A DNA stretch of 45,191 nt from Alteromonadaceae bacterium (GTDB lineage: Bacteria; Pseudomonadota; Gammaproteobacteria; Enterobacterales; Alteromonadaceae). This document shows, one piece after another, positions 5,247 through 43,125 of this stretch. The position numbers were made by a program, and so were the translations under genes. Below the pieces are notes generated by a model. That model had not been told where the DNA came from and searched no databases. It was given only the letters and a program-made list of their open reading frames with translations. The DNA is taken from assembly GCA_036735825.1 (NCBI GenBank), contig DAINNQ010000001.1:1-45191 (forward strand), read 5' to 3'. How positions within the stretch are numbered: the first letter of the stretch is position 1; each line of letters opens with the position of its first letter.

Positions 5247-6227
5247 TTATTTTAAAAAATTCTTTACTTGCTCGTCTAATTTCTCTTGCCAAGCCGGTGG
5301 CATTTCTTCAAGGATAATATTAAGAAAGTTTAAATTTTCTTTAGTAGGATTGACCTGATAAGCAGTTTTAGCCCATAAGTAACTTTTCGCTAATACTGAA
5401 GACGCCTGATTTTCATCTACCTCTTGCAACTTTACCCAATAAAATGACGCCGTTTTTTCGTATGAGGGAGAATATTTTAATGATGACGATTTTTCCATCA
5501 TCATTAGCGCCTTACCCTGAAGCTCATTTTTATTTTCAACATTTAGCGCAACAGAATAATACAAATTAGCGAGCTTAAAGGCAGCCTCGCCTGAATCATG
5601 CTGAATAGCTTGTTGATACCAATGTTCTGCACTTGCAATATTTTGAAAAGGAGAGCTTAAAACAAATATATCCCCCAGTGTAGTTTGAGCTGAAATTGCA
5701 CTACGTTCGGCGGCAGGAAGACACCAATCTATCGCCTTTTTAATATTTATTTCTTGCCAATGGGTTCCTAAATATAAACGCCCAATGTCACAACTTGCAT
5801 CATAAATACCATTTTCAAAAGCTTTTTTGTACCAATAAATCGGTGTGTTTTTTAGACTTGAGTCTTGTTCATTATTGTTGAAGGTAAATTGCAGATGATT
5901 AATGCAATCCCCCATTTCTTTTTGCGCTTGAGGAATATTAGCGCTTGCCGCTTTATAAAACCAACTGCATGCTTTTTCATTATTTTGCGCGACATTACCC
6001 CATGCTAATTTATAAAATAACCCTACTGTCATTTGAGCTAAGGCATTCTCTTTTTCTGCATATTTCTGAAAAAGCACAAAGGCTTGATCGTATTTCTTCT
6101 CACCCAGTAATTGATGAGCTGGAATTAACTCCTGATTCAAATCACTTGTATTAGCAAATACATTTTGATGTTTGACAATAAAAAACAGCCCTAACAATAA
6201 GAGCTGTTTGAAAAAGTTAAAAGTCAT
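5247..6227 (-). CDS. Sel1-like (TPR-family) repeat protein, exported
   Basis: 326-aa ORF with an N-terminal signal peptide (LLLLGLFFIVKHQNVFA). It has several Sel1-like repeats, for example ALAQMTVGLFYKLAWGNVAQNNEKACSWFYKAA, IYWYKKAFENG and AEHWYQQAIQHDSGEAAFKLANLYY. Its start lies 3 nt after the upstream gene's stop. Confidence 0.65.
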   Translation of the reverse strand: MTFNFFKQLLLLGLFFIVKHQNVFANTSDLNQELIPAHQLLGEKKYDQAFVLFQKYAEKENALAQMTVGLFYKLAWGNVAQNNEKACSWFYKAASANIPQAQKEMGDCINHLQFTFNNNEQDSSLKNTPIYWYKKAFENGIYDASCDIGRLYLGTHWQEINIKKAIDWCLPAAERSAISAQTTLGDIFVLSSPFQNIASAEHWYQQAIQHDSGEAAFKLANLYYSVALNVENKNELQGKALMMMEKSSSLKYSPSYEKTASFYWVKLQEVDENQASSVLAKSYLWAKTAYQVNPTKENLNFLNIILEEMPPAWQEKLDEQVKNFLK

Positions 6228-6230
6228 GTA

Positions 6231-6932
6231 TTAAGACCTTGACGGAAAAAGCCCCTGTAATGCAATAATCCAGTTAACGGCGATATAAGGCATACGATTT
6301 TCATGAGATTGTGATCCGCCATTAGCATTTACTGCTGTAGTTGCTGTTGAAACAACTTGACCCGATAAATTTAAAGAAACTGAATCAGGGTGCATCGCGA
6401 CACTTGGTGCAACACTACTATAAATATTTTGACGATTAGGGCTTTGAGCTAATGCTTTACCCGCAGGGCTATTGCTTGACGAACGTGCATCCACTGAATT
6501 TAAATCCGCAACTCCTTCCACAGTGACATCGTTAGTAACTGTTGTTGTCGCCGTATGATTATGTGAAGGCATTTGATTTACTGTTAAAGTAACAAATTCG
6601 AACCCTCCACGCTGACCTAAACGATAATCAGATAACCCTGGACCACCCCCAGCACCAATTAAGGCGCGACCTCTAGTATCAGGCAAAGCAAACGTTGTTC
6701 GACCATCTCCACCATAAGTTGTTCCTAAAATTGAAAACAATGCCTGATTTTGAGATATGGGTAAAATCTGCCCTTGAGCTAAAGCATATGAACGAGGTGC
6801 AAAATTGCCAGCAAAAACACACATAGTTCCTATCATTGAATCAGAACCACCACACGCAAATGCATTATTCCCTATAAAAACACTTGGTAGTAATGCCAAG
6901 GATACTGCAACTTTTTTTATCATTTTTTTCAT
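6231..6932 (-). CDS. Phage tail collar domain protein (MdpB-like), exported
   Basis: 233-aa ORF with a signal peptide (VAVSLALLPSVFIGNNAFA). The collar-domain core GQILPISQNQALFSILGTTYGGDGRTTFALPDTRGR and the C-terminal HENRMPY-type segment are present. A strong SD (AAGGAG) precedes the ATG. The start lies 2 nt after the upstream stop. Confidence 0.8.
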   Translation of the reverse strand: MKKMIKKVAVSLALLPSVFIGNNAFACGGSDSMIGTMCVFAGNFAPRSYALAQGQILPISQNQALFSILGTTYGGDGRTTFALPDTRGRALIGAGGGPGLSDYRLGQRGGFEFVTLTVNQMPSHNHTATTTVTNDVTVEGVADLNSVDARSSSNSPAGKALAQSPNRQNIYSSVAPSVAMHPDSVSLNLSGQVVSTATTAVNANGGSQSHENRMPYIAVNWIIALQGLFPSRS

Positions 6933-6934
6933 AT

Positions 6935-7744
6935 CTATACTCCTTTAAATTGTGAACGTAAACTAATAACTATTACAGTTAAAAATAACAAGAATGTTGA
7001 TGGTTCTGGTACATTCACTGGCGGTTGACCAACTTGAGTTTGATGGATACCCCGTATTGACAGGCTTGCATTTGAACTCTGCTCTAACAAATCTGATGCG
7101 TTAGAATATCCAAAAAACATATCAATTAAGCCTTCAAAATTTACTACCTCACCCGCCAATAATGTATATGAAAAATCATATTGGCCCTCATCAGTAACCC
7201 GTCCTCCAACATTATTCTGGTCATACGTTCCGTTCTTTTCATTAACAAAATCAGCATCAGAAAGAATATCAGAAAAGAAAAATTCGCTATTCACATCATA
7301 CAAACTGATATTTGAACGAGAATAACCTGTCACTAATGCGCTCACCATATGTGAGAAGCGAAAGCTAAAGTCTATCGTAAACGTATCTGTAGCGTGGTTA
7401 TTTTGAATATCAACACCAAAGTCATACGCGACATTTTGATCAATCGCGGCTAAAGAGCTAATCAATGTGTAAAAATTAATGGTCTGACTTGTATCTGTGA
7501 TGGCAATATTTGAAGTATTACCACCTAAAACGGTTAAATTACCAGGAACACCACCAATACTTGCGCTATTAGCTCCAATAGAAATATTGCCTGAGAAGGT
7601 AGTATCATTTGAAATAAAAATTGGTTGGCCTAATTCAATACTACCTACGATTGATAGATCTGACGAGATGAGAGAAGCCGATACGTTGAATTGAATAATA
7701 AATGTAAAAGCGGTAGAAAATAAAAGTTTTGTAATTTTATTCAT
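6935..7744 (-). CDS. PEP-CTERM sorting-domain protein (exosortase substrate)
   Basis: 269-aa ORF with an N-terminal signal peptide. The C-terminus VPEPSTFLLFLTVIVISLRSQFK matches the PEP motif, then a TM helix, then a basic tail. An SD (AAGGA) lies upstream of the ATG. Confidence 0.75.
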   Translation of the reverse strand: MNKITKLLFSTAFTFIIQFNVSASLISSDLSIVGSIELGQPIFISNDTTFSGNISIGANSASIGGVPGNLTVLGGNTSNIAITDTSQTINFYTLISSLAAIDQNVAYDFGVDIQNNHATDTFTIDFSFRFSHMVSALVTGYSRSNISLYDVNSEFFFSDILSDADFVNEKNGTYDQNNVGGRVTDEGQYDFSYTLLAGEVVNFEGLIDMFFGYSNASDLLEQSSNASLSIRGIHQTQVGQPPVNVPEPSTFLLFLTVIVISLRSQFKGV

Positions 7745-7880: not shown

Positions 7881-7936
7881 CACTATTTATTGACAATTAA
7901 AACATAATTCAGTGTTTTAATTGTCAATAAATAGTG
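7881..7936. repeat. Perfect 23-bp inverted repeat (10-nt spacer) between the GH20 gene stop and the PEP-CTERM gene promoter region
   Basis: CACTATTTATTGACAATTAAAAC (7881-7903) is the exact reverse complement of GTTTTAATTGTCAATAAATAGTG (7914-7936). One further A:T pair extends the stem to 24 bp. Each arm contains TTGACA/TGTCAA. Confidence 0.8.
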
Positions 7937-7962
7937 AGTCAACGAGCTTTAGCGTATTCATG

Positions 7963-10440
7963 CTATTTACGACAAGTATCTAATATTTTTTCTACTAACA
8001 ATCCTGATGCTAACGCAACTTCCCTAATGTTTGCATGCATATCATGTAAGCGCTGTTTAATTCGCTTGGTTTCATTTTTATTTATTTTCACTCCTGAAAG
8101 GCAATTTTGAGCAACGGTTAAGCCTAAAGTATTAATGGTTCGAGCATCTTCTGCCACGGCTAATAGAGGCGATAATTTAGGATGCTTTTTAATGGTTTTT
8201 ATCACTTGCTCAAAATTAAAGTGCCAACGATGCAAAGTATTGATAATGTTCTGCAAGCCTTGTTTATTACCCTTTTTAAAGGATCGTAATTGCTGCTGCA
8301 TCTTAACTATCTGCAAGCTTTCTACTGGCAAATAATCAACAAACCGTTTTAATGAGGCATGTTGGTGATAAAAGCCTTTTTGATATTTAATATGATGTCG
8401 AGTGTAATAATGCGCGGGTTCAAGTTGCTCTGATAATATCATTAAGGGTTCTATCGATGTTTTTGGCAACACCAACTGTTGCAAACCTGCTTCAAATTGC
8501 GCTTGATGCTTAAGTCCTACTTTTGTTGCAAAGTCGTTGATGATAAACAAACGTTGATACATATTTTGAGTATCTTTTAACTCTTTAGCCGACCAAAAAC
8601 GTTCTGCAATAGCAAACACGCGTGGCCATGCCCGCACATCAATATTGTTCTCATCCACTAATTCACTCCATAACGTTGCTTCACCACCAATAATATTTTG
8701 TTCTTTTTCTGTAGGTAAACTAGCTAATAGCGTCACTGAGGATAAATCAACGTCAGATAATTTGGCCCCTTGCACAGCATAATGTGTGTTGCCAATTAAC
8801 ATGCGACCTTTAAGTTTAGAACTGTTGGCAAAATCAAACTCTGCGCGAACAGGGCCCATCCAACTGTCAAAAGCAAGATTAATTTGCTGAGCTGTCAGCG
8901 CTAATTGGTGGTCAATATCAACTTTTTGGTATTTATTTTTGTTTAATTTAACATACGCGTGGATCACATAATCATTTCGACTAACCAGCACTAAACGCCC
9001 TTTAACGGCACTCCCTTTTAGCCTAGGCATAGTAAATTTCCATGCTTGTACTTTATCGTCAGCTTCCAGACTCACCACCGCCGCGTCGCGTTTAGCTAAC
9101 GGTTCATTGCGATAGTGATAGCTGGTACTTTGAGGTTGATCGATATAAAAACCTGTCGAGAGCAATCCTTGATAATCTTGAGAGGCAATTTCAGTTAAAG
9201 ACTCCATGCCTCGCCATGATTGCACCATAATATCTTTTGGTAAATCTGGATGATAAATTTCATCCCAACCCATCATTCTTCTCTTATGTTTAGCTAATAT
9301 CAATTGCACTTTTTTATTGAAAAACACTTGTAAATCATGTTCATTTTGCAAGTTATTTTCAGTCATAAACTGTTGTATTTTTGTGCTCTCTTTCCATTGC
9401 ACTGGGTGAACTTCATCACCGCCAATGTGTAGATATTGATCAGGAAACAATTGCACTAGTTCACCAACAATACTGTCGATAAATTGGTACACTTTTTCGT
9501 TACTTGGGTCGAGCAAAGGCTCAAACACGCCCCATTTGTCTTCCATGGTATAAGGCTTATCAACACTGATTAATTCAGGATACGCAACGGCTATTGCCGA
9601 AGCGTGCCCTGGTAAATCAAATTCAGGCACCACTCGTATCCCTAGCAAGCTTGCATAGTCAACAACATCGGCAATTTCTTGTTGCGTATAATATTGATTA
9701 TCTGAAGCTAATTGATGCAGTTTTGGATGCGTTTTTGATTCAATGCGCCAACCTTGGTCATCAGTTAAATGCCAGTGAAAAACATTGAGTTTTGCCGCTG
9801 ACATACCGTCAAGTTGCCGCTTTATGGCATCAATCGAAATAAAATGTCGAACACTATCAATCATTAACCCACGCCATGAAAAACGTGGTGAATCAACAAT
9901 ATTTACCAGAGGTAATACCATGGTTTTATCTGCCGTCGAGCGAAACATTAATTGCGCTAAGGTCGCCACACCCTGCATAACACCAAACTCTGTATTAGCC
10001 GTAATTTTTATCCCCTGCTTATCAATAATCAATTGATAACTTTCATCATTTTTAAGGGTTGGCAACTGATAACCATTTGCTTGCTGTTGATCGACGACAA
10101 TACGCAATTGCGTAAAGTCTGAGGAGTTAGCGCTCTCGTTTGCTTCATCTGATAATTGATTCGTTTTTTCAACAACAGTTAAATGCTCACTAGCTATTTG
10201 CTTATTAATTTTAGCCAGAATAACGGCTTTACGTTGTTCACTCACGCCATCAATGTTAATTGATAACTGATTCGCTACTTGGTATTTGCCTTGCTCAACT
10301 TTGACAGAGGCAGGATAAGGCATTAAAGGTAAAGTATTGGCCGCGAAGCTATGAGTAAAAACGCTCATCGCCAAGATTAGCGTGACAAAACATGGTTTGA
10401 TGATTAGCACGAAATATTTCGTTGAAAAATGATTAAACAC
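7963..10440 (-). CDS. GH20 beta-N-acetylhexosaminidase, periplasmic/exported
   Basis: GH20 catalytic motifs FHWHLTDDQGWRIE and LHIGGDEV are present. I place the start at the GTG at 10440, not the ATG at 10521. That gives MFNHFSTKYFVLIIKPCFVTLILAMSVFTHSFAA, a normal signal peptide. It also overlaps the TAG stop of the upstream symporter by 1 nt (TAGTG). Confidence 0.9.
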   Translation of the reverse strand: MFNHFSTKYFVLIIKPCFVTLILAMSVFTHSFAANTLPLMPYPASVKVEQGKYQVANQLSINIDGVSEQRKAVILAKINKQIASEHLTVVEKTNQLSDEANESANSSDFTQLRIVVDQQQANGYQLPTLKNDESYQLIIDKQGIKITANTEFGVMQGVATLAQLMFRSTADKTMVLPLVNIVDSPRFSWRGLMIDSVRHFISIDAIKRQLDGMSAAKLNVFHWHLTDDQGWRIESKTHPKLHQLASDNQYYTQQEIADVVDYASLLGIRVVPEFDLPGHASAIAVAYPELISVDKPYTMEDKWGVFEPLLDPSNEKVYQFIDSIVGELVQLFPDQYLHIGGDEVHPVQWKESTKIQQFMTENNLQNEHDLQVFFNKKVQLILAKHKRRMMGWDEIYHPDLPKDIMVQSWRGMESLTEIASQDYQGLLSTGFYIDQPQSTSYHYRNEPLAKRDAAVVSLEADDKVQAWKFTMPRLKGSAVKGRLVLVSRNDYVIHAYVKLNKNKYQKVDIDHQLALTAQQINLAFDSWMGPVRAEFDFANSSKLKGRMLIGNTHYAVQGAKLSDVDLSSVTLLASLPTEKEQNIIGGEATLWSELVDENNIDVRAWPRVFAIAERFWSAKELKDTQNMYQRLFIINDFATKVGLKHQAQFEAGLQQLVLPKTSIEPLMILSEQLEPAHYYTRHHIKYQKGFYHQHASLKRFVDYLPVESLQIVKMQQQLRSFKKGNKQGLQNIINTLHRWHFNFEQVIKTIKKHPKLSPLLAVAEDARTINTLGLTVAQNCLSGVKINKNETKRIKQRLHDMHANIREVALASGLLVEKILDTCRK

Positions 10441-11888
10441 TATAAAGATTCCATTTTTTTTCGTTGAGCGGTTAAGTTTGCTAACGCTTGTTGTGTATCT
10501 AGCGCTGATTTTGGCGTGCATAAAGTCACAACATACCCAATAACAAAGCCAGTTATCAGCGCTGGAATTACCGGATTACCCCAAAATGCTAACCAAGTAC
10601 TTTGTAATGATATAGCAATCGCAAAACCCGTTGCCGATAACAAGCTCGCGATAGCACCTTGCCAATTATACCTTGGCCAAAATCGCCCTAAAACTCCACA
10701 TACACACAAACCTGACATCAAAATTGCGATCATTTTAGTGATGTAAGCAATGATATCATTGGATAACAGCGCAAATCCTAAAGCGACACTAATAGTGATC
10801 ACCAAACTCACACGAGATAAGAAAACAACGCGCTCAGCGGTTGGCATTTTTTTAAAGGCTAAATAATACAAATCGCCAATGGCAACACTTACCGCAGCAA
10901 TAGCGTCAGAGCTAGCACTTGATAAAGTCGCTGAAATTCCCGCAATAATAATAAAAACACCCAGTGCTAATGGCATAACATTTAAGGCAATATGCGGAAA
11001 AGCAAATGATGGATTGTCTAATTCTCCCGCCATGGCAAAAGCGCTCATACCAATAATGGCAGGAATAATTGAAAAACCTAAATATAATACGCCAGAATAA
11101 ATAAACGACTGACGAATGGAGCTTACGGTTTTGCCTGAGTAAATTCGCTGACGAAACGACGGCGTCGCTAATATGCCAACTAATACCGCCATAGCCAGTG
11201 ATACTGCTGGCACTAAGCCGACCTTATCAACCGCAAACCACGACAAATTATCCGTCGGTTGCGCGGCTATCATGACTTGCCAACCGCCAATATGCTCAAC
11301 CGAAAAATAAGCCATGGCAATAAAACCCGTAAAGAGAATCAATGCTTGTATTGAATCCGTCCACACCACAGCGGTATAACCACCGATGACAACATAAATA
11401 GTAAAACTGATCGCGATTAACAGTTTTGCCATATTTATATCAATGCCCGTTAGCCAGGATAAATACATGCCTCCACCAATAATATGCGCGCCTAACCAAC
11501 CAATACTGGCGACATAAATAATCAAGGCCACTACATTTTTAATCAAAGGATTAGCACCAACATAGAAGGCAATTTCTTCACTCATGGTCATGAATTTATA
11601 TTGACGAACAGGGGCAAATAACCACGCAAGTAACAAAATACCCACCGCTCCGCCAATACCATATAAAGTACCCGCCCAACCATTAAGATAGGCAAAACCC
11701 ACCGCGCCCATAGACGAGCCAGTACCCACCATAGTCGCAACCGTTGTGCCAAGCGTTAAAAGTAATGGCAAGCTGCGTCCACCCAATAAAAAATCTTCAC
11801 CCGATTTTTGTTTGCGTGAAACAAACCAGCTCAGCATGATCATTGCCGAAACATAAACAATAAACGCGATAATGAAAATGCCTTCCAT
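10440..11888 (-). CDS. Sodium:solute symporter (SSS) family transporter
   Basis: 482-aa polytopic membrane protein with roughly 13 hydrophobic segments. The N-terminal pattern (SRKQKSGEDFLLGGRSLP…) is typical of SSS/PutP-PanF-type carriers. Confidence 0.85.
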   Translation of the reverse strand: MEGIFIIAFIVYVSAMIMLSWFVSRKQKSGEDFLLGGRSLPLLLTLGTTVATMVGTGSSMGAVGFAYLNGWAGTLYGIGGAVGILLLAWLFAPVRQYKFMTMSEEIAFYVGANPLIKNVVALIIYVASIGWLGAHIIGGGMYLSWLTGIDINMAKLLIAISFTIYVVIGGYTAVVWTDSIQALILFTGFIAMAYFSVEHIGGWQVMIAAQPTDNLSWFAVDKVGLVPAVSLAMAVLVGILATPSFRQRIYSGKTVSSIRQSFIYSGVLYLGFSIIPAIIGMSAFAMAGELDNPSFAFPHIALNVMPLALGVFIIIAGISATLSSASSDAIAAVSVAIGDLYYLAFKKMPTAERVVFLSRVSLVITISVALGFALLSNDIIAYITKMIAILMSGLCVCGVLGRFWPRYNWQGAIASLLSATGFAIAISLQSTWLAFWGNPVIPALITGFVIGYVVTLCTPKSALDTQQALANLTAQRKKMESL

Positions 11889-11933
11889 ATGGTGATCCTT
11901 ATTTCTGATGAGTGACTGTTTTTATCGACAATT

Positions 11934-12320
11934 TTACGGAGCCTTGTAACAAGTCACATCAACTTCTACTTTACAATCAACCACTAAATCAGCAACAGCA
12001 CATATTCTCGCAGGCGGATGTTCACCAAAAAACTCTTTGAACACTTTATTGAATGATTGAAAATAACGAGCGTCTGTTAATATCACTTTAACGTGAGCAA
12101 CGTGCTCTAACCCGTAACCCGCTTCCGTCATAATTTCTAGACAATTTTCAATGGCGATACGAGATTGCTCAATAATGCCGCCTTCAACTACTTCGCCGTC
12201 ACGCATCGGGGTTTGTCCTGACACCATCAGCCAGCCACCCGCTTCAATTGCACGCGAAAAGGGTAAATGTTGTCCGCCAGTTCCTACACCGCCGCCAGCA
12301 CCAAATCGTTTAATTGTCAT
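11934..12320 (-). CDS. RidA/YjgF/UK114 family enamine-imine deaminase
   Basis: 128-aa ORF of typical RidA length. Conserved segments include FSRAIEAGGWLMVSGQ and PARICAVADLV…VEVDV. Confidence 0.85.
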   Translation of the reverse strand: MTIKRFGAGGGVGTGGQHLPFSRAIEAGGWLMVSGQTPMRDGEVVEGGIIEQSRIAIENCLEIMTEAGYGLEHVAHVKVILTDARYFQSFNKVFKEFFGEHPPARICAVADLVVDCKVEVDVTCYKAP

Positions 12321-12350
12321 GTTATATCTACCTCGATAACTTATTGTTGA

Positions 12351-13847
12351 TTAAATATGTTTTATAAAATTTGTTGATGATTTGTGTTTTAAAAATAATC
12401 CTGCACGCGTGTCGTCAGTTGCAACCACTCCCAGCGCATATTGATAAGTTAATCGCCCGTTTACCCACACACTTTCGATCCCTTGGGAAATTTCACAAGG
12501 CTGAGTGAAGCTTGCTTTATCGACGACTTTCTCAGGGTCAAAAAGCACTAAATCGGCAAAATAACCTTCTTTGATCAAACCGCGTTTTTCTATGGCAAAA
12601 TTGTTCGCAGACAAGCCTGTCATTTTATGCACCGCTAATTCCAAAGAAAGCAGTTGTTTTTCTCGACTAAAATGCCCTAGCACTCTTGGAAAAGCGCCCC
12701 ACAATCGTGGATGAGGATGAGGATCACAAGGCAAGCCATCTGAGCCAATCATGCCTTTTTCAAATTGAATAAATTGCTCTACATCTTGCTCGCTCATACC
12801 ATGATATACCGCACCTGCAGGTATCAATTTTTTCGCAGCAGCGAGTAAACTTAACTGCCAATGATGAGCAATTGCCGCTAGCGTTTTGCCTGCCATTTCA
12901 GGTGCAGCTTCAGACCAAGTGATAAATATGTCGAAATCATCCGTGACTTGATTCAAATCTAACGTGCTTGAACTCGCGTGATACGGGTAGCTATCGCAAC
13001 ATATATCTTGTTTTTTTTGGGCGTTGACCACATGAGTGAGTACTTCTTGCGCCCTGCCCCAATTTTGTTTGCCCGCACATTTTAAATGCGAGATAACCAC
13101 GGGTGATGTTGTTTTTTCACCCATCAGAAAAGCTTCATCAAGTGCTGAAATAATACCGTCGAATTCTGTCCGTAAATGCGTGGTGTAAATCGCATCAAAC
13201 GCTTTTAATTCTCGCGCTAAAAATTCAACTTCGTCCGCCGTTGCCGCTTTTGCATTAAAATAGGCTAAACCTGTGCTTAACCCTTTAGCGCCTTGCTCTA
13301 AAGCCTGCACTAACAGCGCGCGCATTTTTTTTAACTCGTCATCGTTCGCCGCTTTGCTTAAATCATCCATCACTTGTGCTCTAAGCGCAGTATGGCCAAT
13401 TAGCGCAACTACATTGACCGCTGGCTTTTGGCGCGCTAGTTCATCAACATAATGATTTAAAGTAGGAAAAATAAACTCGTTTTGTTGCCCAAGTAAATTA
13501 ATTGGGTCAGGCGGGTAACTATCAAGTAAGTAAGGACTTGCACTTATGCCGCAGTTACCCACAATAACGGTGGTAATACCTTGGCTCACTTTTGCCAACA
13601 TCGCTGGGTTTCGAATCAATTCAAGGTCGTCATGGGTATGCACATCAATAAACCCAGGCGCTAGCACTAACCCTTTGCCATCAACAACCGTGCTGGCAAG
13701 TGTTGCATCTAACGGTGCGTTTATTTTACCAATAGCGACTATGTGATTGTTCTTCACGGCAACATCGCCGACATAACTTGGCTGTGCTGATCCGTCAACA
13801 ATCACAGCTTGTTTGATCAGAAAATCGTATTGACAAGTGGAGCGCAT
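12351..13847 (-). CDS. D-aminoacylase family amidohydrolase (N-acyl-D-amino-acid deacylase-like)
   Basis: 498-aa ORF. The N-terminal beta-domain is followed by the metal-binding GFIDVHTHDD motif. IGSDG…HPR and the C-terminal GYFADLVLFDP are typical of the D-aminoacylase subfamily. Its ATG directly abuts the upstream TAA (TAAATG at 13845-13850). Confidence 0.85.
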   Translation of the reverse strand: MRSTCQYDFLIKQAVIVDGSAQPSYVGDVAVKNNHIVAIGKINAPLDATLASTVVDGKGLVLAPGFIDVHTHDDLELIRNPAMLAKVSQGITTVIVGNCGISASPYLLDSYPPDPINLLGQQNEFIFPTLNHYVDELARQKPAVNVVALIGHTALRAQVMDDLSKAANDDELKKMRALLVQALEQGAKGLSTGLAYFNAKAATADEVEFLARELKAFDAIYTTHLRTEFDGIISALDEAFLMGEKTTSPVVISHLKCAGKQNWGRAQEVLTHVVNAQKKQDICCDSYPYHASSSTLDLNQVTDDFDIFITWSEAAPEMAGKTLAAIAHHWQLSLLAAAKKLIPAGAVYHGMSEQDVEQFIQFEKGMIGSDGLPCDPHPHPRLWGAFPRVLGHFSREKQLLSLELAVHKMTGLSANNFAIEKRGLIKEGYFADLVLFDPEKVVDKASFTQPCEISQGIESVWVNGRLTYQYALGVVATDDTRAGLFLKHKSSTNFIKHI

Positions 13848-14699
13848 TTAATCTCCCAAAGGTGAACGAGCATCACCTTTACGATGTTCGTCTAAATGCA
13901 ATTTTAAACGGCGTAACTTTTCTCGAGACTTACGTTGATTTTTCACCGCAACATCACTGGCAAGAATATCAATGGCTGCCATCATCACATAACGCGAAGC
14001 ACTGGGTTTAAAAATATAGTCAACCTCTTGCGTTTTAATCGGCAAATGCACATCAGACAAGCGCGCAAGTTTGCTATCAGGACAAATCGCGATAACTTTT
14101 GCGCCATATTCTTGCGCTATGGTCGCCGCGGCAATGACATCGGGGCTATGACCGCTGAGCGACAAACAAATCACCACATCATTCACGTCAACAGTAGCTG
14201 CCGTCATCCGCATTAGCATAGGATCGCAATAAGCATTGCTTTTAATGGTCAGTCGAAATAATCGATGATGGCATTCTTGCGCCATCACTGTGCTGCCGCC
14301 GCCAACACCAAAAATCAAACAATGATTAGCATGATTAATTAGCTCACTGGCGTGATGAGTTGCTTGTTCGGTAATTAAGCCCGCATTTAACGTCAATACA
14401 TCATGGATAGACTGATAAATTGCTGGAATATCTTTTTTATCAATTGGGGTATTTTCATTAAAACGTTGACCGACAGCGGCAGATTGCGCCAACTGTAATT
14501 TCAAATCACGAACGTTTTTACACTCGAGTGATTTTGCTAAACGAGTGATAGTGGCATGACTTACTCCAGCTTTATCGGCAAGTTCATGGATTGGACATTG
14601 AGAAGCAAAATCTAAGTCATTTTGAATAAACTCTGCCACTTTTTGCTCAGAAGGTGACAAATGAGCAAGACGTTGGGTAATGCGCGCTAAAATATCCAT
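13848..14699 (-). CDS. MurR/RpiR family transcriptional regulator (HTH + SIS domain)
   Basis: 283-aa ORF. It has an N-terminal HTH_6-type segment (LSPSEQKVAEFI…ELADKAGVSHATITRLAKSL) and a C-terminal SIS phosphosugar-binding domain (IFGVGGGSTVMAQ…LSLSGHSPDV). Confidence 0.9.
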   Translation of the reverse strand: MDILARITQRLAHLSPSEQKVAEFIQNDLDFASQCPIHELADKAGVSHATITRLAKSLECKNVRDLKLQLAQSAAVGQRFNENTPIDKKDIPAIYQSIHDVLTLNAGLITEQATHHASELINHANHCLIFGVGGGSTVMAQECHHRLFRLTIKSNAYCDPMLMRMTAATVDVNDVVICLSLSGHSPDVIAAATIAQEYGAKVIAICPDSKLARLSDVHLPIKTQEVDYIFKPSASRYVMMAAIDILASDVAVKNQRKSREKLRRLKLHLDEHRKGDARSPLGD

Positions 14700-16075
14700 C
14701 AGAAGTAGGTCGCTATTTGTTTGGTGACATTAAATGCTTCATCAACAATGCCTATTTTTCGCCATTTATCGATCGTCAAACAAGGATGCGAAGTGGAAAA
14801 ACTGATGATATCGCCTGGTTTAATATCGTCGCTTTCACCGACTTTCATCATACAATGTTGATCCATTATTTTAACTACTTGCCAATGTGATGGCGCTTTT
14901 GAAGGCTTTGTTTGTGAAGGTTCTAGTTGTTTTGGACGATAAAATAATTCTGGCGTTGGTAAACCCGCATCAAAAGCACAATCACGCTTGCCTAGACCGA
15001 TGATCACTAATCCTGGTTCAGGCACAGAATACACATATGCCCAAACCGTTAAACTTGAAGATAAATCACCGGCTAAATCACAAGCCAATTGGCTGCGTGC
15101 CATAACATTTTGTTGTGCGTCTTGATAAATGCCGGTGTCATGAATGAGATAACAGCCTGGGCGGATAACGGGAATAAAGTCCAGCTCATTACCTTTAGAT
15201 TTTTGCTCGGTTGAATTTGAATTTAACGGTAAAGTTAATTGTTTAGCAACAACGTCATACCAAGCAGAGCCTGCGCCCGTAATAATTGGTTTTCTATCTG
15301 AAAAAGCATTTTGGTCAGTTAGCTGGGAAAATAGGCGCTTAATACCTTCGATAAATTCGCAAATTTTTTCATAGGCTTGATCACCATGGATCACCCCTTC
15401 ATAAAAGCTAATACCGGCAATATTTAACTGCGAGTACGCTTTTAGCGTTGCAACTAACGGCGCAATGTTATCAAGATCGCGCCAGCCACAACGTCCACCG
15501 TTAACACCGATTTCCAATAATACATTTACCGAGATATTTTCAAGGGCATACTCGTTAAAAAACTCACCAAGCCAGCGAGCATTTTCTATCGAGTCAACAA
15601 AGCAATAAAACTCAAAATTGGTATCACGTAACAATTCAACCAGCTGTAAAGCATGAAAACGACCAACCAGCTGATTTGCCAATATTATGCGCTTGATACC
15701 TTGATGATATGCATTCACCACTTGCGGCATAGTCGCCAAGGTAATGCCCCAACACCCTTGTGCTAACTGCAATTTAAATAACTCAGGTGCCATAGTCGTT
15801 TTGCCGTGCGGCGCTAACTGCACTTGGCTTTTTTCACTAAATGTTTGCATCCATTGCGCATTATTGGCAATGGCTTTATCGCTCAGTACCGCGATAGGTA
15901 AGCTCACTTCTTCAGCTAGAATATTCCAGCCTGTCGTTACTAATTGCTCACTATTGCCTGAGCCTTTTTCAAAAATCATCATTGAGGAAATCGCATTTTT
16001 ATCAGCTGAACAAAAAAATATCAGCGGGAATATCTCATTTCTGATGACTTTATCGTTATTATGTAACTCGATCAA
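14699..16075 (-). CDS. Fold-type III PLP enzyme: amino acid deaminase / D-serine-dehydratase-like (alanine racemase N-terminal domain family)
   Basis: The ORF is up to 458 aa. APHGKTTMAPEL carries the Lys typical of the PLP-binding site in the alanine-racemase-N/DSD1-like family. The C-terminus resembles a D-serine-dehydratase-like domain (…SHPCLTIDKW). The start is uncertain: 16075 is a TTG, the internal ATGATG at 15982 is an alternative, and neither has a convincing SD. The stop overlaps the rpiR ATG (TGATG). Confidence 0.7.
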   Translation of the reverse strand: MIELHNNDKVIRNEIFPLIFFCSADKNAISSMMIFEKGSGNSEQLVTTGWNILAEEVSLPIAVLSDKAIANNAQWMQTFSEKSQVQLAPHGKTTMAPELFKLQLAQGCWGITLATMPQVVNAYHQGIKRIILANQLVGRFHALQLVELLRDTNFEFYCFVDSIENARWLGEFFNEYALENISVNVLLEIGVNGGRCGWRDLDNIAPLVATLKAYSQLNIAGISFYEGVIHGDQAYEKICEFIEGIKRLFSQLTDQNAFSDRKPIITGAGSAWYDVVAKQLTLPLNSNSTEQKSKGNELDFIPVIRPGCYLIHDTGIYQDAQQNVMARSQLACDLAGDLSSSLTVWAYVYSVPEPGLVIIGLGKRDCAFDAGLPTPELFYRPKQLEPSQTKPSKAPSHWQVVKIMDQHCMMKVGESDDIKPGDIISFSTSHPCLTIDKWRKIGIVDEAFNVTKQIATYF

Positions 16076-16216
16076 TATTTATTTCTGTTACTTAATAACA
16101 TTTCAAAATTTTGCCGCACTCTTTAATTGCAGGTAAGATACTCGCCATAAAAATACAAATGAATTCCCCTGTAAATTTAGATCAGCTTTCGAAATCGATC
16201 TAAGTGAGAATAAATT

Positions 16217-16933
16217 ATGCACGAGCAATATCATGAAAATATGGAGCTGCCTGAGGTTCCCTACAATGTTCCAACCTTACCGTACGAAAAACCTGAACTA
16301 GGCAAAAATTATTGGGTGGTTGATGATTTTTTCCCGCAAAAAAAAGCGCTAGAAATAGCTAACCGATGCTTCAATAAAGCGAAATGGAAATTAGGCTCAC
16401 CCTACACAAAAGAATTATGGCCAGGCATGCGTTCCAAAAACGCGTTAAACAAGCAAGATCTTGCCAAAGTAGAAGAATGGGCGAAAGCCCAAGTCAACAA
16501 ATCAGAGTTTTGGGTAGCAAAGTCAGATAAAGTGGTAGTTGATCATAATACTGCCATTTTAGTTGGAGCAGATGAAGGCGCAGCTCGTCCACATGTTGAT
16601 GCTCGGCAATTATGTCGCTATGGCGCTGTGTTGTATTTAAGTCAAAACCCTGCTCCACATTCTGGCACAAGCTTTTATCGTTTAAAATATGCCAATGGTG
16701 CTGCGGGTGGAAATATCGTCAAAGCGCCCTTTCAAAACCTTGTTGATGCGCTAAATACAACAAGTTTACCTGCAAGTGCATGGTACGAAGACGTCAGTAT
16801 CGACAATAAATTCAATCGCTTAATTTTATTCAAAGGTAATATTGCCCATAGCGCTAGCAGTTACTTCGGCAAAGAAAAACGAGATAAACGCCTAGCTGTG
16901 ACTTTTTTCTGGATGGCAGAAGACGAAAGTTAG
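16217..16933 (+). CDS. Hypothetical protein, possible 2OG-Fe(II) oxygenase / cupin-like fold
   Basis: 238-aa ORF with good coding appearance. It has a candidate facial triad HxD…H (RPHVDA … NIAHSAS). No confident family assignment is possible by eye. Confidence 0.4.
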   Translation: MHEQYHENMELPEVPYNVPTLPYEKPELGKNYWVVDDFFPQKKALEIANRCFNKAKWKLGSPYTKELWPGMRSKNALNKQDLAKVEEWAKAQVNKSEFWVAKSDKVVVDHNTAILVGADEGAARPHVDARQLCRYGAVLYLSQNPAPHSGTSFYRLKYANGAAGGNIVKAPFQNLVDALNTTSLPASAWYEDVSIDNKFNRLILFKGNIAHSASSYFGKEKRDKRLAVTFFWMAEDES

Positions 16934-19981: not shown

Positions 19982-20857
19982 TTACAAATGGGTTCGTAAT
20001 TCAAACAGCTCAGGGAAGAAACTGATATCCAGCGCTTTTTTCAAAAAACTCACACCTGATGACCCGCCAGTTCCCATTTTATTACCAATAATTCGCTGCA
20101 CAGTGTACATATGTTTAAAGCGCCACTGTTGAAACGCATCTTCAATATCGATGAGCTTTTCTGCTAGCTCATATAACTCAAAGTGCTCTTCCGCCTGTTG
20201 ATAAACCTTTAACCAAGCTTGCATCACTGAATCATTTTTCTGATACGGCTGTGAAAAATCTCGCGTTAATACATGCTCGTCAATTTTCATGCCCTTATCT
20301 GCTAACAAACGGATCACTTCGTCATATAAACTGGGCGCTTCTAAAACCACTTTTAATTCTTGGTAAACCTCGTCATTGGCACTATGCACTTTAAGTAATG
20401 ACGCGTTTTTATTCCCTAATAAAAATTCTAACTTGCGATAGCCGTACGATTGAAAACCTGATGAATGCCCTAAAGCATCACGAAATTTCAAATAATCCAC
20501 TGGGGTTAACGTTGATAAAATATGCCAAGATTGTGTCAGTTGATTAAAAATTTGTTTAACCCGTGAGATCACTTTAAACGCATGGCCAAAGTCACCTTCA
20601 TGAATATTTTTAATCGCTGCACTTAGTTCATGGCCTGCTAACTTAAGCCATAATTCACTCGTTTGATGAATAGTAATAAAGAGCATTTCATCATGTTGAT
20701 CTGACAAGGGGTTTTGCGCGCTTAGCACTTGTGACAAACATAAATAGTCGCTATACGACATGTCATCTTTAAAATCAGTATGTATGCTTTCTTCCAGCTC
20801 TCGATAATTGCTCGACTTATCTGAATTAGCATCAGAACTATGGTATGGACACGTCAT
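19982..20857 (-). CDS. kynA: Tryptophan 2,3-dioxygenase
   Basis: The TDO signature MSYSDYLCLSQVLSAQNPLSDQHDEMLFITIHQTSELWLKL and the C-terminal GTGGSSG are present. I prefer the start at MTCPYH (ATG 20857), which overlaps the upstream TAA by 1 nt (TAATG). Confidence 0.9.
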   Translation of the reverse strand: MTCPYHSSDANSDKSSNYRELEESIHTDFKDDMSYSDYLCLSQVLSAQNPLSDQHDEMLFITIHQTSELWLKLAGHELSAAIKNIHEGDFGHAFKVISRVKQIFNQLTQSWHILSTLTPVDYLKFRDALGHSSGFQSYGYRKLEFLLGNKNASLLKVHSANDEVYQELKVVLEAPSLYDEVIRLLADKGMKIDEHVLTRDFSQPYQKNDSVMQAWLKVYQQAEEHFELYELAEKLIDIEDAFQQWRFKHMYTVQRIIGNKMGTGGSSGVSFLKKALDISFFPELFELRTHL

Positions 20858-22278
20858 TATTGATCTCCTAATGGTGCGAGTTTTTGTTGTGCCAACACAT
20901 ATAATTTTTGATAAACATGTGCTTGTTGCCATTCTTGTTCAATGTTTGGAAGTTGCATAATTTCATCCATGATTTGTTGCTGAATATCTCCAGTTTCCAG
21001 TGCGGTTTTATAAGGAATGTCAGGTGAAAAAGTCACCATGGAGTACAAAGGCACCCATAAATTCGGATGCATTTGGTGAAATTGCGCTTCAATTTTTTTA
21101 CGTAATAAAAAGCGGGCATCACCCGACAAATCACTCATTTCAACAAAATTACGTTTTGCTAATTCAATGATTGCGTCACCATTAGCTTTGCGTTCAATTT
21201 GATAAGCCTGCAAAATGTCTGCCCATTGATGATCATGCTCGTCGACTAATTCCGCCAAAATTCGGCAATCTTCAAAACCGCAATTCATCCCTTGACCATA
21301 AAAAGGCACCATGGCATGAGCAGCATCACCAATTAAGGCAATGCTGTCGTTGACTAACCAAGGGTAAATATGAACTAAACATAACGGCGATGGCTCTTTA
21401 CTGAGAAAATCATCAACAGGGTTTTCAAGATAATCCATCGCGTCACTAAAATATTGATGAAAAAAATCTGACACTTGTTGATGTTCTCTCAACGATTCGA
21501 ACGACAACTCTCCTTGATGATTCATAAACAAGGTACACGTAAAAGAACCGTCAGTATTCGGCAACGCAATAAGCATAAAGTCTTTGCGCGGCCATATATG
21601 TAGAGCATTTTTTTCTAATTTATGACTGCCGTCTTTATTGGCTGAAATGGTTAATTCCATGTAACTTTGCGGCATGTAGTCTAAGCTATAACTGATACGC
21701 TCTTTAGGCAGCTCTTGCATTAAGCGCCTTACTTTTGAAAACGCACCATCAGCGCCAAAAATCAAATCACTTTGATGAATTTCTTTCAGATGTTCTTCGG
21801 TTAAATAGACGGCCGTATTGTCTGCAAAATTTAGCTGACTTAACCTATAGCCAAAATGAACGTTCACGTTTTGCTCTTGTTCAGCTAAGGCAATTAATTG
21901 CTCATTAATGCCAGCGCGGGAAACCGACCATATCGCCTGATCACTATTACCATAAGGTAGTTTAGTAAGATGCCCTTGCTCGTCATGCATAATACGGCAA
22001 TACATTGGAATAGCCTGCTGACGAATATCTTCATCTATACCCACCGCCTGCAATGCTTTCCAGCCACGATCAGACAGCGCAAGATTAATTGATTTACCTT
22101 GGTAAATATTGGTTTTTCTAGAATCAGGACGAGACTCAAACAAGTCAATTTGATAACCTTTTTTCGCAAGCATCACCGCCAACAACGCGCCAACAGGGCC
22201 AGCGCCATTAATCGCAATTTTTTGTGTTTTCGTTGTTTTTTGCAGATTGTGCTGCTGGTCGTGTACATATTCACTCAT
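20857..22278 (-). CDS. kmo: Kynurenine 3-monooxygenase (FAD-dependent)
   Basis: A Rossmann FAD motif is present ([30 protein letters not shown]). The GD motif ([23 protein letters not shown]) is typical of KMO and the PHBH family. I prefer the ATG at 22278 (MSEYV). It overlaps the kynureninase stop by 8 nt. Confidence 0.9.
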
Positions 22279-23560
22279 GGTGCCACCCCGCAAATAATTG
22301 TTTTAACGTTTGACCACAACGATAGACATCTTCAAAACTATTGTATAAAGGCGTTGGCGCTAAACGCACAACATCAGGCTCACGAAAATCGGCAATAACA
22401 CCAGCTTCTGTTAAGGCTGCAAAAAAGCGTTTATCTGTGCCAATTAGTTTTACTGAAAGCTGGCAACCGCGTTTCTCTGGCGCTGTTGGCGTAATAATTT
22501 CTAACGAAAATTCAGGAAACTGGTTAACGATGTCGTTAAATACAAACTCTAAATACGCAGTTAATTGCAGGCTTTTTTTCCGTAAGTTTTCAATACCCAC
22601 TTGATGAAAAATATCTAAAGAAGCTTTTAACACCGCCATGCCCATGATCGGCACGTTACTCAACTGCCAACCTTCAGCGCCTGTCATAGGTTCAAAAGTA
22701 TTTTCCATCAAAAAGCGGCGTTCTTTATTATGCCCCCACCAACCGCCAAAACGTGGCGTTGCGGTATTATTACCATGACGATCATGAACAAAAATTGCGC
22801 CAACATTGCCAGCACTGGCATTGATATATTTGTATGTACACCATGCAGCAAAATCGACATTCCAGTCATGCAACTTCACAGGAATATTTCCTGCGGCATG
22901 AGCTAAATCAAACCCAGCCAAAGCACCGACTTTATGAGCCGCTTGCGTTAATTTTTCCATATCAAATAACTGACCGGTAAAATAATTTACACCGCCAAAA
23001 AATACTAAAGCCAGCTCGTCTTTATGTAATTCTATCGCCGCCAAAATATCTTCTTCACGGATCAAATGCTCACCTGCACGTGGCGCAACTTCAATAATCG
23101 CGTCATCTGCGTTAAAACCGTGGTGCTGCACTTGGGTTTCTAATAAATACCGATCTGAAGGAAACATTTTTGCTTCACTGATAATTTTATAACGCTGCTT
23201 AGTGGGTCGATAAAAGGAGACAAACAACAGATGTAAATTGGTGGTCAGTGAATTCATACACACCACTTCTGACTCATTGGCACCCACTAATGCCGCCATC
23301 GCGGGCGTAAGAATTTCATGATAACTCACCCACGGATTTTGCGCATGAAAATGCCCTTCTACGCCCCATTTCGCCCATTCATCTAGCTCGGCATTAACAT
23401 ATTCTTTTGCCGATTTCGGCGCTAAACCAAGGGAGTTACCCGTAAAATAAAGTACCTGTTTGCCATTAATAATGGGGTGATGAAACTTATCGCGATACGC
23501 CGATAAGCTATCGTTTTTATCTTGTAATTGGGCAAACGCTAAGTTGTTTTCAAAAATCAT
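22271..23560 (-). CDS. kynU: Kynureninase (PLP-dependent hydrolase)
   Basis: Length and motifs are typical of KynU, including the PLP-lysine region [14 protein letters not shown] and the N-terminus …[21 protein letters not shown] prefer the ATG at 23560 over the GTG at 23587 because of a better upstream purine run. Both starts are possible. Confidence 0.9.
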
Positions 23561-23583
23561 AATATTCTCGTCAATAGCCAAGA

Positions 23584-25608
<2,025 letters not shown>

Positions 25609-25612
<4 letters not shown>

Positions 25613-27084
25613 GCGTTATTCTCATCTATTTTGATACATATATTCATGGGTTCGGCGTAAAAATTAAGTGAGTGCTTACCACCTTCACGACCGATACCAG
25701 ATAACTTAACGCCACCAAATGGCGCGCGTAAATCACGTAAAAACCAGGTATTCACCCACACTAAGCCCACGTCCATTTGCGGTGCAACGCGATGAGCTCG
25801 CGATAGATTTTCGGTCCAGATAGCAGCAGCTAAACCATATTGACTGTTGTTTGCGCGGGCAATAACTTCCGCTTCGTCATCAAATATTGAGATATGACAA
25901 ATAGGGCCGAAAATTTCTTCCTGATTAACGCGATTATCATCATCAAGCCCGGTGATGATGGTCGGCTCGATATAACAGCCTTGATCGCGTTCATCACCAA
26001 ATTGCGGAACACCACCACCGCAAATGAATTCAGCACCTTGCTCTTTTGCAAGTTGATAATACGACAATACTTTTTGCTGATGTGTTTTAGAAACTAATGG
26101 CCCCATAAAGACATGCTCATCGGTTGGATAACCAATTTTTATCGCAAGGGCTTGCTGTTTGAGTTGTTCTATAAAGGTTTTAGCTATCGAGCGATGAACA
26201 AAAACTTTTTCAGTGCATAAACATACTTGACCACAATTGGTAAATGTTGAACGTGCCACTCCTGCAACTGCTTTAGTTAAGTCTGCATCACCAAACACTA
26301 TCGCCGCATTTTTTCCGCCTAATTCAAAGGAAATCGGTTTAACACCTTGGGCAACTGAACGCATAATGTGCTGACCAGTAGCGCTTGCGCCCGTAAACGT
26401 AACCGCATCCACACCTTGGTGAGCGGTTAACAAATCGCCAACGTTTTTTCCTCGTCCTAAGATAAGATTAAACACGCCAGGCGGTACACCAACTTCATCC
26501 ATCACCTTGGCCAGTAAAAAAGCCGTTGATGAGGTTTCTTCAGACGGTTTGAGAATTACGCAATTTCCACATGCTAAAGCAGGAGCAACTTTCCATGTTG
26601 CTAATAATAAAGGTAAATTCCACGGCGAGATTACCGCAACAACGCCTAAAGGCTTGTTGATACTGTAATTTAAGGCTTGCTCACCAGTGGGTGTTTCGGT
26701 GATAAACGTTTCCCCACTGTGCATTCTCGTCATATCAGCGAAGGCACGAAAATTGACGGTTCCACGGGGAATGTCGATGGTTTGCACTTGAAACAATGAT
26801 TTACCCGTATCAGCAATTTCAGCATCAATAAATGCTTGTTGTTGCTCGGCCATTTTATCGGCAACACGATGCAATAAATCACAACGTTGATTAACGGATA
26901 GTTTTCCCCATTCGCCCTGTAATGCTTTGCGCGCACTTTGCACAGCCAGATCAATTTGCTTGGCATCAGCTTCAGCAATTTTGCCAATAACTTGCCCATT
27001 CACTGGGCTAATATTGTCAAAATAATGCTCACTTTGCACAAACTGGCCATTGAGATAACAATCAAGCCGAGAGTTTTCTGTCAT
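25609..27084 (-). CDS. NAD+-dependent aldehyde dehydrogenase; candidate 2-aminomuconate-6-semialdehyde dehydrogenase
   Basis: 491-aa ALDH with the catalytic Glu (FELGGKNA) and Cys ([11 protein letters not shown]) motifs. It is the first gene of the kynurenine-pathway operon. The substrate is inferred from context. Confidence 0.75.
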
Positions 27085-29444: not shown

Positions 29445-29682
29445 AAAAAATCCTAAATATTTCTGTGCTTAGCGTGCACAAAATCTATCGACGTAAGTAG
29501 ATCAACACCAAATGTTCCGATACTCGTGATGATTATTTCAAATAAAATGAATCAGAAATTTTATCAATCAGCATAAAAGCTAAACTAAAAAACTAAACAA
29601 AAAGTTAGCGCTATAGAAAACATTAAAGCCTGAGCCATCCTTTTCAGCAAGCTTTAACGTGATATGTGCTTATGCCAAGCTT

Positions 29683-32343: not shown

Positions 32344-32361
32344 GAATACCCTGACCTTTGA

Positions 32362-34842: not shown

Positions 34843-34876
34843 AGTGATTCTAAACCGCAGAGTTTACGATAGTCAT

Positions 34877-43116: not shown

Positions 43117-43125
43117 TCAACAGCT

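Follow-up and report, generated by a model that had tools for sequence, protein, structure and literature searches.

The bacterial use of C1-oxidised chitooligosaccharides has been described in Pseudoalteromonas prydzensis ACAM 620, whose ong cluster comprises eight genes (Jiang et al., Nat Commun 2022, PMC9537276). These encode a TonB-dependent receptor (ongOT-1), an importer of the sodium:solute symporter (SSS) family (ongIT), a MurR/RpiR-type regulator (ongR), a hexosaminidase of glycoside hydrolase family 20 (GH20; ongA), a sugar kinase (kdgK), a RidA protein (ongD), a deacetylase similar to D-aminoacylases (ongB) and a deaminase similar to D-amino-acid deaminases (ongC). Transcription proceeds as ongOT-1, ongCRBD and ongIT-kdgK-ongA, the last of these being expressed as a separate, OngR-independent operon (PMC9537276). 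The analysis reported here concerns a stretch of 45,191 nucleotides from an Alteromonadaceae bacterium (contig DAINNQ010000001.1, assembly GCA_036735825.1; hereafter the window), which carries six adjacent minus-strand genes that in all probability constitute an ong cluster for the use of C1-oxidised chitooligosaccharides. An ong-like system acting on 2-acetamido-2-deoxy-D-gluconate (GlcNAc1A) had already been suggested in an initial annotation of this DNA, and the suggestion is upheld by a gene set and order equal to those of the published cluster, by a deacylase of the OngB type and by a GH20 enzyme of the OngA type.

The six open reading frames (ORFs) are found at the coordinates of that annotation, and their tight packing and junctions are confirmed by the ORF coordinates and the raw sequence. 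The first gene, ongC (14699-15982), would encode a PLP (pyridoxal 5′-phosphate) enzyme of fold type III, 427 aa long, carrying the D-ser_dehydrat domain (PF14031) and predicted to be a deaminase/dehydratase of D-glucosaminate (GlcN1A). It is followed by ongR (13848-14699), for a putative repressor of the RpiR/MurR family with HTH_6 and SIS domains (Pfam, NCBIfam), and by ongB (12351-13847), for a predicted GlcNAc1A de-N-acetylase with the D-aminoacylase fold, a subtype V amidohydrolase matching Amidohydro_3. Downstream lie ongD (11934-12320), which codes for a 128-aa member of the RidA family (Ribonuc_L-PSP, PF01042), ongIT (10440-11888), for a sodium:solute symporter (SSF, PF00474) that would be the inner-membrane importer of GlcNAc1A, and ongA (7963-10440), for a GH20 β-N-acetylhexosaminidase presumed to be periplasmic and to cleave GlcNAc-GlcNAc1A. 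The ongC/ongR junction is a TGATG overlap at 14697-14701 and the ongR/ongB junction a TAAATG abutment at 13845-13850; ongB and ongD are separated by 30 nt (12321-12350) and ongD and ongIT by 45 nt (11889-11933), while ongIT and ongA share a TAGTG overlap at 10438-10442, provided that the GH20 gene starts at GTG 10440. Since a consensus scan found no terminator-like site in these junctions, it is plausible that the six genes are packed as one transcription unit. None of the ong proteins has an equivalog model in NCBIfam, where every match falls far under the cut-offs, so that library annotation alone leaves these genes generic.

Two of the start codons merit comment. The deaminase gene had initially been placed at 14699-16075, and its reading frame and family stand, but the TTG at 16075 at which the mechanical ORF opens probably does not. 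The ATG at 15982 is probably the true start, because homology to five orthologues sets in at the residues FEKGSG, right behind this codon, and because an independent gene call on a metagenome contig of 100% identity gives an OngC of 427 aa, equivalent to a start at 15982; the TTG at 16075 lies only 10 nt away from the candidate operator described below. The start of the GH20 gene is ambiguous among GTG 10440, which the initial annotation had adopted, GTG 10410 and ATG 10368. The mechanical ORF (7963-10521) opens at an ATG within the symporter gene, and gene callers chose ATG 10368, which gives a protein of 801 aa. In the alignment, a signal peptide like that of the homologues (…THSFA|ANTLPLMPYP) is obtained only with one of the two GTG codons.

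The relationship with the published cluster was evaluated by scanning a single genome for each species, which yielded 80 loci with OngB-like proteins, and by tblastn of the six window proteins against them. Four of these loci show the six genes in the same order and orientation. They belong to a Colwellia metagenome-assembled genome (L001), which is the closest relative, to Rheinheimera (L005), to P. neustonica (L017) and to Pseudoalteromonas sp. ZZD1 (L040). For OngC, OngR, OngB, OngD, OngIT and OngA, respectively, identities to the window are 60, 71, 65, 94, 75 and 48% in L001; 44, 66, 60, 83, 56 and 38% in L005; 44, 61, 57, 84, 62 and 42% in L017; and 45, 62, 57, 90, 61 and 42% in L040. The two Pseudoalteromonas loci served as proxies for the characterised cluster of ACAM 620, the OngB of L040 being 92% and that of L017 88% identical to the crystallised P. 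prydzensis enzyme (PpOngB). The gene content and order read directly from the window include an OngB-type deacetylase, an adjacent OngC, an OngD directly behind ongB, OngR, OngIT and a GH20 OngA whose signal peptide depends on a GTG start at 10440 or 10410; a kdgK inside the cluster and an ongOT-1 divergent from ongC are lacking. The presence of RidA and GH20 genes within the operon had been regarded at first as a possible variant of the architecture. This idea has to be abandoned, since the published order ongC-R-B-D-IT-A includes both, as the canonical genes ongD and ongA, which are essential in ACAM 620.

The assignment of the deacylase was addressed by comparison with all PDB sequences. 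It aligns with PpOngB (PDB 9KB1) at 571 bits and 57.5% identity, with the numbering in register, as against 408 bits for the classical D-aminoacylase AfDam (1m7j) and 368 bits for BbDam. The structure of OngB (Wang et al., JBC 2025, PMC12017989, PDB 9KB1/9KB3) allowed 20 positions to be checked, and all 20 are kept in the window protein. In PpOngB numbering, these are His68 and His70, the metal ligands Cys97, His222 and His252, and the catalytic Asp368; the acetamido and carboxylate anchors Leu116, Tyr194, Lys254, Tyr285, Ser291, Leu370 and Arg379; the hydroxyl-binding Glu226, Ser290, Ser292 and Gln298; and the small pocket residues Ala193, Ala256 and Gly348. Positions 292, 298, 193, 256 and 348 correspond to Ser294, Gln300, Ala195, Ala258 and Gly350 of the window protein. 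Mutagenesis has established that positions 292 and 298, occupied by Thr and by Leu or Arg in D-aminoacylases, discriminate between the two types of enzyme; neither these residues nor the hydrophobic Phe/Met/Met pocket of D-aminoacylases are present in the window deacylase. The seven-residue signature AEASSQG is the same in the window protein as in PpOngB, and it also appears in five of the eight full-cluster loci found among the 80. Judged from its score and from all the published specificity residues, the deacylase is of the OngB type, which settles in favour of OngB the comparison with classical D-aminoacylases proposed in the initial annotation. PfOngB, which at 57% identity is as distant from PpOngB as the window protein is, has been shown by experiment to deacetylate GlcNAc1A only, and the activity of PpOngB and two homologues on N-acetyl-D-amino acids is undetectable.

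The top PDB match of the window protein is a different one, the KleDacyl enzyme of Klebsiella pneumoniae (9G5M; 579 bits, 58% identity), which likewise carries the OngB-type Ser-Ser-Ser motif and Gln292. In the loci of Klebsiella, Raoultella and Buttiauxella (L008, L009, L024, L025 and L060), a gene of the KleDacyl type lies beside ongC, ridA and ongIT, and the natural substrate of KleDacyl is probably GlcNAc1A. A separate arrangement is seen in 18 Pseudomonas loci (L010-L012, L018, L021, L028, L029, L031-L033, L038, L041, L043, L044, L047, L056, L067 and L068), which hold only the ongR-ongB pair, with the full AEASSQG signature; ongC, ridA, ongIT and ongA are absent within 10 kb. In these strains, the other steps may be encoded elsewhere, or OngB may serve another purpose.

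Other proteins of the cluster fit the same scheme. OngC scores 382 bits against PDB 3GWQ, a 'D-serine deaminase', with its HGKT and SHPC motifs aligned, and at most 70 bits against D-threonine aldolases. These motifs presumably provide the PLP lysine and the metal-binding His and Cys of the D-serine dehydratase family. The OngC of ACAM 620 belongs to its own clade among the fold-type III enzymes and converts GlcN1A into 2-keto-3-deoxygluconate (KDG) and NH3, D-Ser and D-Thr being also accepted (PMC9537276). The best library match of OngR is HexR (NCBIfam, under cut-off), and its counterpart in ACAM 620 acts as a repressor (PMC9537276). No other protein of the cluster is as conserved as OngD, and an identical protein is encoded on four metagenome contigs. 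The place of RidA in the system, proposed at the outset, is upheld by its identity as the canonical OngD; the accompanying statement that RidA quenches an enamine or imine went too far, because in ACAM 620 OngD is genetically essential and its biochemical role is given as unknown (PMC9537276). We infer that OngD could be an enamine/imine deaminase. The importer of the published cluster belongs to the same SSS family as the window OngIT (PMC9537276).

With regard to the hexosaminidase, the window protein aligns from end to end, at 36-48% identity, with the GH20 enzymes located in the ongA position of seven other loci, and it shares with them an insertion of about 130 residues placed just before the motif GGE(A/I)(T/A)(L/I/M)W, close to where the catalytic domain ends. 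With the window's other GH20 protein, a chitobiase of the CHB_HEX type (29683-32343) devoid of this insertion, it shares just 26% identity. These features identify the cluster-borne GH20 as OngA-type at the level of its sequence. In ACAM 620, OngA is periplasmic, hydrolyses GlcNAc-GlcNAc1A and is genetically essential (PMC9537276).

An exact-match lookup of the OngB protein gave no record. The state of the cluster could be assessed through metagenome contigs, retrieved by protein lookups as carrying the identical RidA and OngR proteins, which are 96-100% identical to the window. Three of them (L081, L083 and L084) are 99.8-100% identical, L081 running into the same downstream neighbours, and the same strain or species is present in two further datasets. 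A fourth (L082) is 96.2% identical over 7955-15813, with zero indels and the same layout devoid of kdgK; its similarity ends at window position 7955, eight bases past 7963, where the ongA stop codon has its first base. Compared codon by codon with L082, all six genes are intact and free of internal stops, with dN/dS values of 0.07 for ongC, 0.01 for ongR, 0.14 for ongB, 0 for ongD (no amino-acid changes), 0.04 for ongIT and 0.19 for ongA. The cluster is maintained by purifying selection.

The position held by ongOT-1 in ACAM 620, divergent from ongC, is occupied in the window by a gene for a DUF6445 protein (16217-16933). This gene was considered as a part of the ong system and rejected, a homologue being found in none of the 80 related loci (0/80), and its product is probably unrelated to the pathway. 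A TonB receptor gene is divergent from ongC in L005, L017 and L040, and a fragment of one in L001. The ongOT-1 gene is dispensable and is the sole non-conserved ong gene (PMC9537276). In P. neustonica (L017, 4739-7700), the receptor gene upstream of ongC is broken up, with one ORF for the Plug part and another, overlapping it, for the barrel part; this may be a frameshift or a pseudogene and would fit the published dispensability.

Several considerations weigh against the identification of the locus as a working ong cluster. All the biochemistry comes from published experiments on orthologues, and the signal peptide of OngA demands a GTG start that automated gene callers passed over. No PfkB homologue that could be KdgK and no TonB-dependent receptor are encoded in the 45-kb window, either by tblastn with the proteins of L001, L017 and L040 (noise only, E>1) or by Pfam on its 37 large ORFs, and deletion of kdgK abolishes growth of ACAM 620 on GlcNAc1A (PMC9537276). 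The same Pfam search revealed no Eda, LPMO (lytic polysaccharide monooxygenase) or GH18 gene, so that a link to LPMO action is not demonstrable within these 45 kb, which lack LPMO and chitinase alike; the absence of kdgK/eda, LPMO and TonB receptor genes reported initially is thus corroborated, by both searches for kdgK and the receptor and by Pfam for eda and LPMO. From these data it could be proposed that the locus is a decaying or incomplete remnant, which lost kdgK and the TonB receptor and no longer supports growth on oxidised chitin products, all the more as kdgK is essential in ACAM 620 and lies, as a PfkB kinase gene, between ongIT and ongA in the Colwellia relative L001, as well as in L005 and L017. 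This possibility is extremely improbable in view of the six intact ORFs, of the dN/dS of 0-0.19 without indels against a relative with the same layout, and of the recovery of the same strain or species in two further datasets. Moreover, in Pseudoalteromonas sp. ZZD1 (L040) ongIT is followed directly by ongA, and then by an MscS channel gene, with no kdgK in the cluster, and Gilvimarinus (L020) and L082 are likewise without a cluster-borne kdgK. Because L040, whose OngB is so close to PpOngB, L020 and L082 share this gap, the missing kinase gene is not disqualifying, and the kinase may function in trans. As a general enzyme in the breakdown of hexuronates and alginate, KDG kinase can have its gene elsewhere. 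A KDG kinase in another part of the genome would be the simplest reconciliation of the reduced cluster with the essential role of this step.

A different objection concerns the substrate. In fold, the enzymes match D-aminoacylase and D-serine dehydratase, OngC also deaminates D-Ser and D-Thr, and KleDacyl, presented in 2025 as a D-acylase with which to produce D-amino acids, weakly hydrolyses N-acetyl-D-Met, -Phe and -Trp, with kcat/Km values of 1.5-2.8 per min per mM (PMC12149444); therefore, OngB-type enzymes are not all strictly specific for GlcNAc1A, which counts against the assignment too. Thus, the genes might form a plain catabolic operon for N-acyl-D-amino acids and D-hydroxy-amino acids, composed of a D-aminoacylase, a D-serine/threonine dehydratase, RidA and an amino-acid symporter, with the GH20 as an unrelated passenger. 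This is very unlikely, taking into account that the specificity positions are OngB-like (Ser, not Thr, at 292; Gln, not Leu/Arg, at 298; Ala/Ala/Gly, not Phe/Met/Met), that PpOngB and its two tested homologues show no detectable activity on such substrates, and that the GH20 is syntenic in seven other loci, where it has the clade-specific insertion. The value for KleDacyl on N-acetyl-D-Met reaches only 2.8 per min per mM, and GlcNAc1A was not among the substrates assayed (PMC12149444); given this weak activity, residual D-acylase activity alone would not refute the OngB assignment. It could also be argued that the chemistry is the same but the substrate does not come from LPMOs, the host, itself without LPMO, scavenging GlcNAc1A or D-glucosaminate produced by other routes, such as sugar oxidases or dehydrogenases that attack GlcNAc or chitooligosaccharides, or obtained through cross-feeding from neighbours. 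The 45 kb without LPMO, chitinase or TonB-dependent receptor would agree with this, as would the OngB-type genes accompanied by ongC, ongR and ridA, with no ongA or ongIT nearby, in soil Burkholderiaceae, Acidobacteria and Halomonas, which suggest uses beyond marine chitin particles. We consider such an origin improbable, since the action of OngA on the dimer GlcNAc-GlcNAc1A points to oligomeric products of chitin oxidation, the published survey found ong clusters together with lpmo in 298 marine genomes (PMC9537276), and the absence of LPMO genes covers 45 kb only.

According to the preferred reading, that of an ong cluster, C1-oxidised chitooligosaccharides would cross the outer membrane through a receptor or porin encoded elsewhere, and the signal-peptide GH20 OngA would act in the periplasm on GlcNAc-GlcNAc1A. 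The Na+/solute symporter OngIT would then import GlcNAc1A, which OngB, a Zn-dependent amidohydrolase, would convert into D-glucosaminate and acetate. Later, the fold-type III PLP enzyme OngC would transform GlcN1A into KDG, releasing NH3, with OngD, needed in vivo, probably hydrolysing the enamine or imine intermediate. KDG would be phosphorylated by KdgK and then cleaved by an Eda-type aldolase, both being encoded outside the 45-kb window. OngR would repress the operon until GlcNAc1A or a derivative of it is present, probably through the predicted operator at 16086-16100.

This candidate operator is the palindrome TGTTAttaagTAACA, of the form TGTTA-N5-TAACA, situated about 105 nt upstream of the ongC ATG, in the 234-nt region between ongC (15982) and the DUF6445 gene (16217), and immediately downstream of a -35-like TTGAAA (16101-16106). 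No other perfect copy exists in the 45-kb window, and related loci totalling 1.55 Mb contain ten, nine of them at most 203 nt upstream of ongC or ongR. When up to one mismatch is allowed, the motif occurs at 1.28 per kb in the 330-nt upstream zones and at 0.012 per kb elsewhere, an enrichment of about 108-fold. It is found upstream in 30 of 69 loci, belonging to Colwellia, Rheinheimera, Pseudoalteromonas, Vibrio, Photobacterium, Klebsiella/Raoultella, Halomonas/Vreelandella, Ralstonia, Cupriavidus and Paraburkholderia. On these sequence grounds, the palindrome is predicted to be the OngR operator. No OngR operator is mentioned by Jiang et al. (PMC9537276), and the literature searched contains no other paper on OngR; the predicted operator is the sole element of this analysis that goes beyond that literature.

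Other candidate sites were discarded. One-mismatch copies of the motif occur inside the ong coding regions, at 8787-8801, 10254-10268 and 15619-15633, and were rejected as too weak; the window holds seven such copies where 3.2 would be expected, and 2 of 100 shuffles reach seven. An AT-rich imperfect palindrome, AGATCGATTTCGAAAGCTGATCT, near 16179-16201, was likewise dismissed, having no counterpart in the other loci. A consensus promoter scan of the window gave fewer promoter-like matches than shuffled sequences did, and neither the operon ends nor the gap between ridA and ongIT showed a convincing site in the consensus promoter and terminator scans.

At the 3′ side, a perfect inverted repeat of 23 bp (minus strand, 7881-7936; arms 7881-7903 and 7914-7936, 10-nt spacer; CACTATTTATTGACAATTAAAAC) is found by RNA folding and in the sequence 26 nt past the stop codon of ongA. 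It occurs only once in the window and L082 does not have it, and it escaped the terminator consensus scan because it is AT-rich. A hairpin at the transcript end, marking the 3′ boundary of the cluster, is its probable role; the repeat may work as a terminator or as a site bound by protein, or it may mark where a rearrangement ends.

The gap between ridA and ongIT, of 45 nt in the window as against 135-166 nt in L001, L017 and L040, carries AAGGA as ribosome-binding site and is free of terminator-like sites. Because of this short gap, the published division into two operons and the OngR-independent expression of ongIT-ongA may not hold here, and all six window genes may form one transcript, unlike those of ACAM 620. 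It may tentatively be proposed, with clearly less than even confidence, that this Colwellia-like lineage possesses a streamlined six-gene, single-transcript ong system, devoid of kdgK and receptor gene, in which ongIT and ongA are also placed under OngR through a hitherto undescribed TGTTA-N5-TAACA operator, conserved from Vibrionaceae and Alteromonadales to Burkholderiaceae. If this were true, the motif would allow the OngR regulon, including unlinked kdgK/eda, TonB-dependent receptor and lpmo genes, to be predicted genome-wide.

Beyond the ong genes, the window contains a second chitin-related cluster (28590-35889, minus strand, with a divergent AraC regulator), located 12.5 kb from the first. 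It includes genes for a ROK kinase (28590-29444, minus strand), for the CHB_HEX-type GH20 chitobiase mentioned above (minus strand), for a permease of the major facilitator superfamily (32362-33624, minus strand) with weak similarity to NagP/FucP, and for a NagX-like membrane protein (33742-34842, minus strand; 162 bits, cut-off 480), all the NCBIfam matches in this cluster being below the equivalog cut-offs. It probably serves the hydrolytic use of chitobiose and GlcNAc, and it could consume the GlcNAc released by OngA.

Between both clusters, a complete-looking operon of the kynurenine/3-hydroxyanthranilate pathway (19982-27084, minus strand) encodes a tryptophan 2,3-dioxygenase, an FAD monooxygenase, a kynureninase, an amidohydrolase_2 protein similar to 2-amino-3-carboxymuconate-6-semialdehyde decarboxylase, a 3-hydroxyanthranilate 3,4-dioxygenase, a second protein of the RidA family and an aldehyde dehydrogenase. 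Directly downstream of the ong cluster (5247-7744) are three small genes, for a 269-aa protein, a protein with a phage-tail-collar domain and a Sel1-repeat protein; the first has no family match and ends in …PEPSTFLLFLTVIVISLRSQF, similar to a PEP-CTERM sorting signal, and contig L081, 99.8% identical, has these three genes behind ongA as well. A polysaccharide-biosynthesis block (35921-44985 and 89-1225) contains two glycosyltransferases of family GT4, Wzy-like and Wzx-like (flippase) proteins, a hexapeptide acyltransferase, a heparinase II/III-like protein and an unusual protein of 747 aa in which ADH_zinc_N is fused with GFO/IDH/MocA oxidoreductase domains. A bacterial homologue of MATCAP (PF08014) is encoded at the left end of the window.

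The locus is a further member of the ong system already described in 2022, and not a discovery. Its value lies in extending an experimentally defined oxidative chitin pathway to a Colwellia-like lineage without a genome in the collections searched, the OngB of the nearest species representative being 65% identical, and in showing that ongC-R-B-D-IT-A is the core whose genes stay together, co-location requiring neither kdgK nor the outer-membrane receptor. It also provides a correct annotation for genes that pipelines label 'D-aminoacylase', 'D-serine deaminase' or 'beta-hexosaminidase', a modest practical gain, flags the published 'D-acylase' structure of KleDacyl (9G5M) as that of an OngB-type enzyme, and offers a candidate OngR operator motif usable for regulon mapping.

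Compared with the systems already known, the cluster most resembles that of ACAM 620, with which it shares six proteins in the order and orientation ongC-ongR-ongB-ongD-ongIT-…-ongA, an OngB active site identical at each published position, an OngA with signal peptide and the characteristic GH20 insertion, and a regulator of the RpiR family. It differs in sequence, with 42-62% identity to the Pseudoalteromonas proxies except for RidA (84-90%), in having the DUF6445 gene in place of the divergent ongOT-1, and in the absence of the kdgK that ACAM 620 holds between ongIT and ongA, the ongIT stop overlapping here the ongA start (TAGTG). This variation (kdgK and receptor not co-located, a compact and possibly single operon) is minor and has precedent. 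With the D-aminoacylases AfDam and BbDam, OngB has in common the (β/α)8 amidohydrolase fold with its insertion domain, the Cys/His/His metal site and the catalytic Asp, but the side-chain pocket is Ser/Gln/Ala/Ala/Gly instead of Thr/Leu (or Arg)/Phe/Met/Met. In the same way, OngC shares an alanine-racemase-like N-terminal domain and the PF14031 C-terminal domain with the D-serine dehydratase/D-threonine aldolase family (3GWQ, 4V15), from which, as published, OngC homologues are separated as a clade of their own. Finally, the hydrolytic GlcNAc pathway (chitobiase and proteins of the NagP, NagX and NagK types; 28590-34842 in the window) is analogous in combining a periplasmic GH20 with an inner-membrane permease and handles GlcNAc, the co-product of OngA; it differs in the kinase-first catabolism of a neutral sugar and in a GH20 that has CHB_HEX domains and lacks the OngA insertion.

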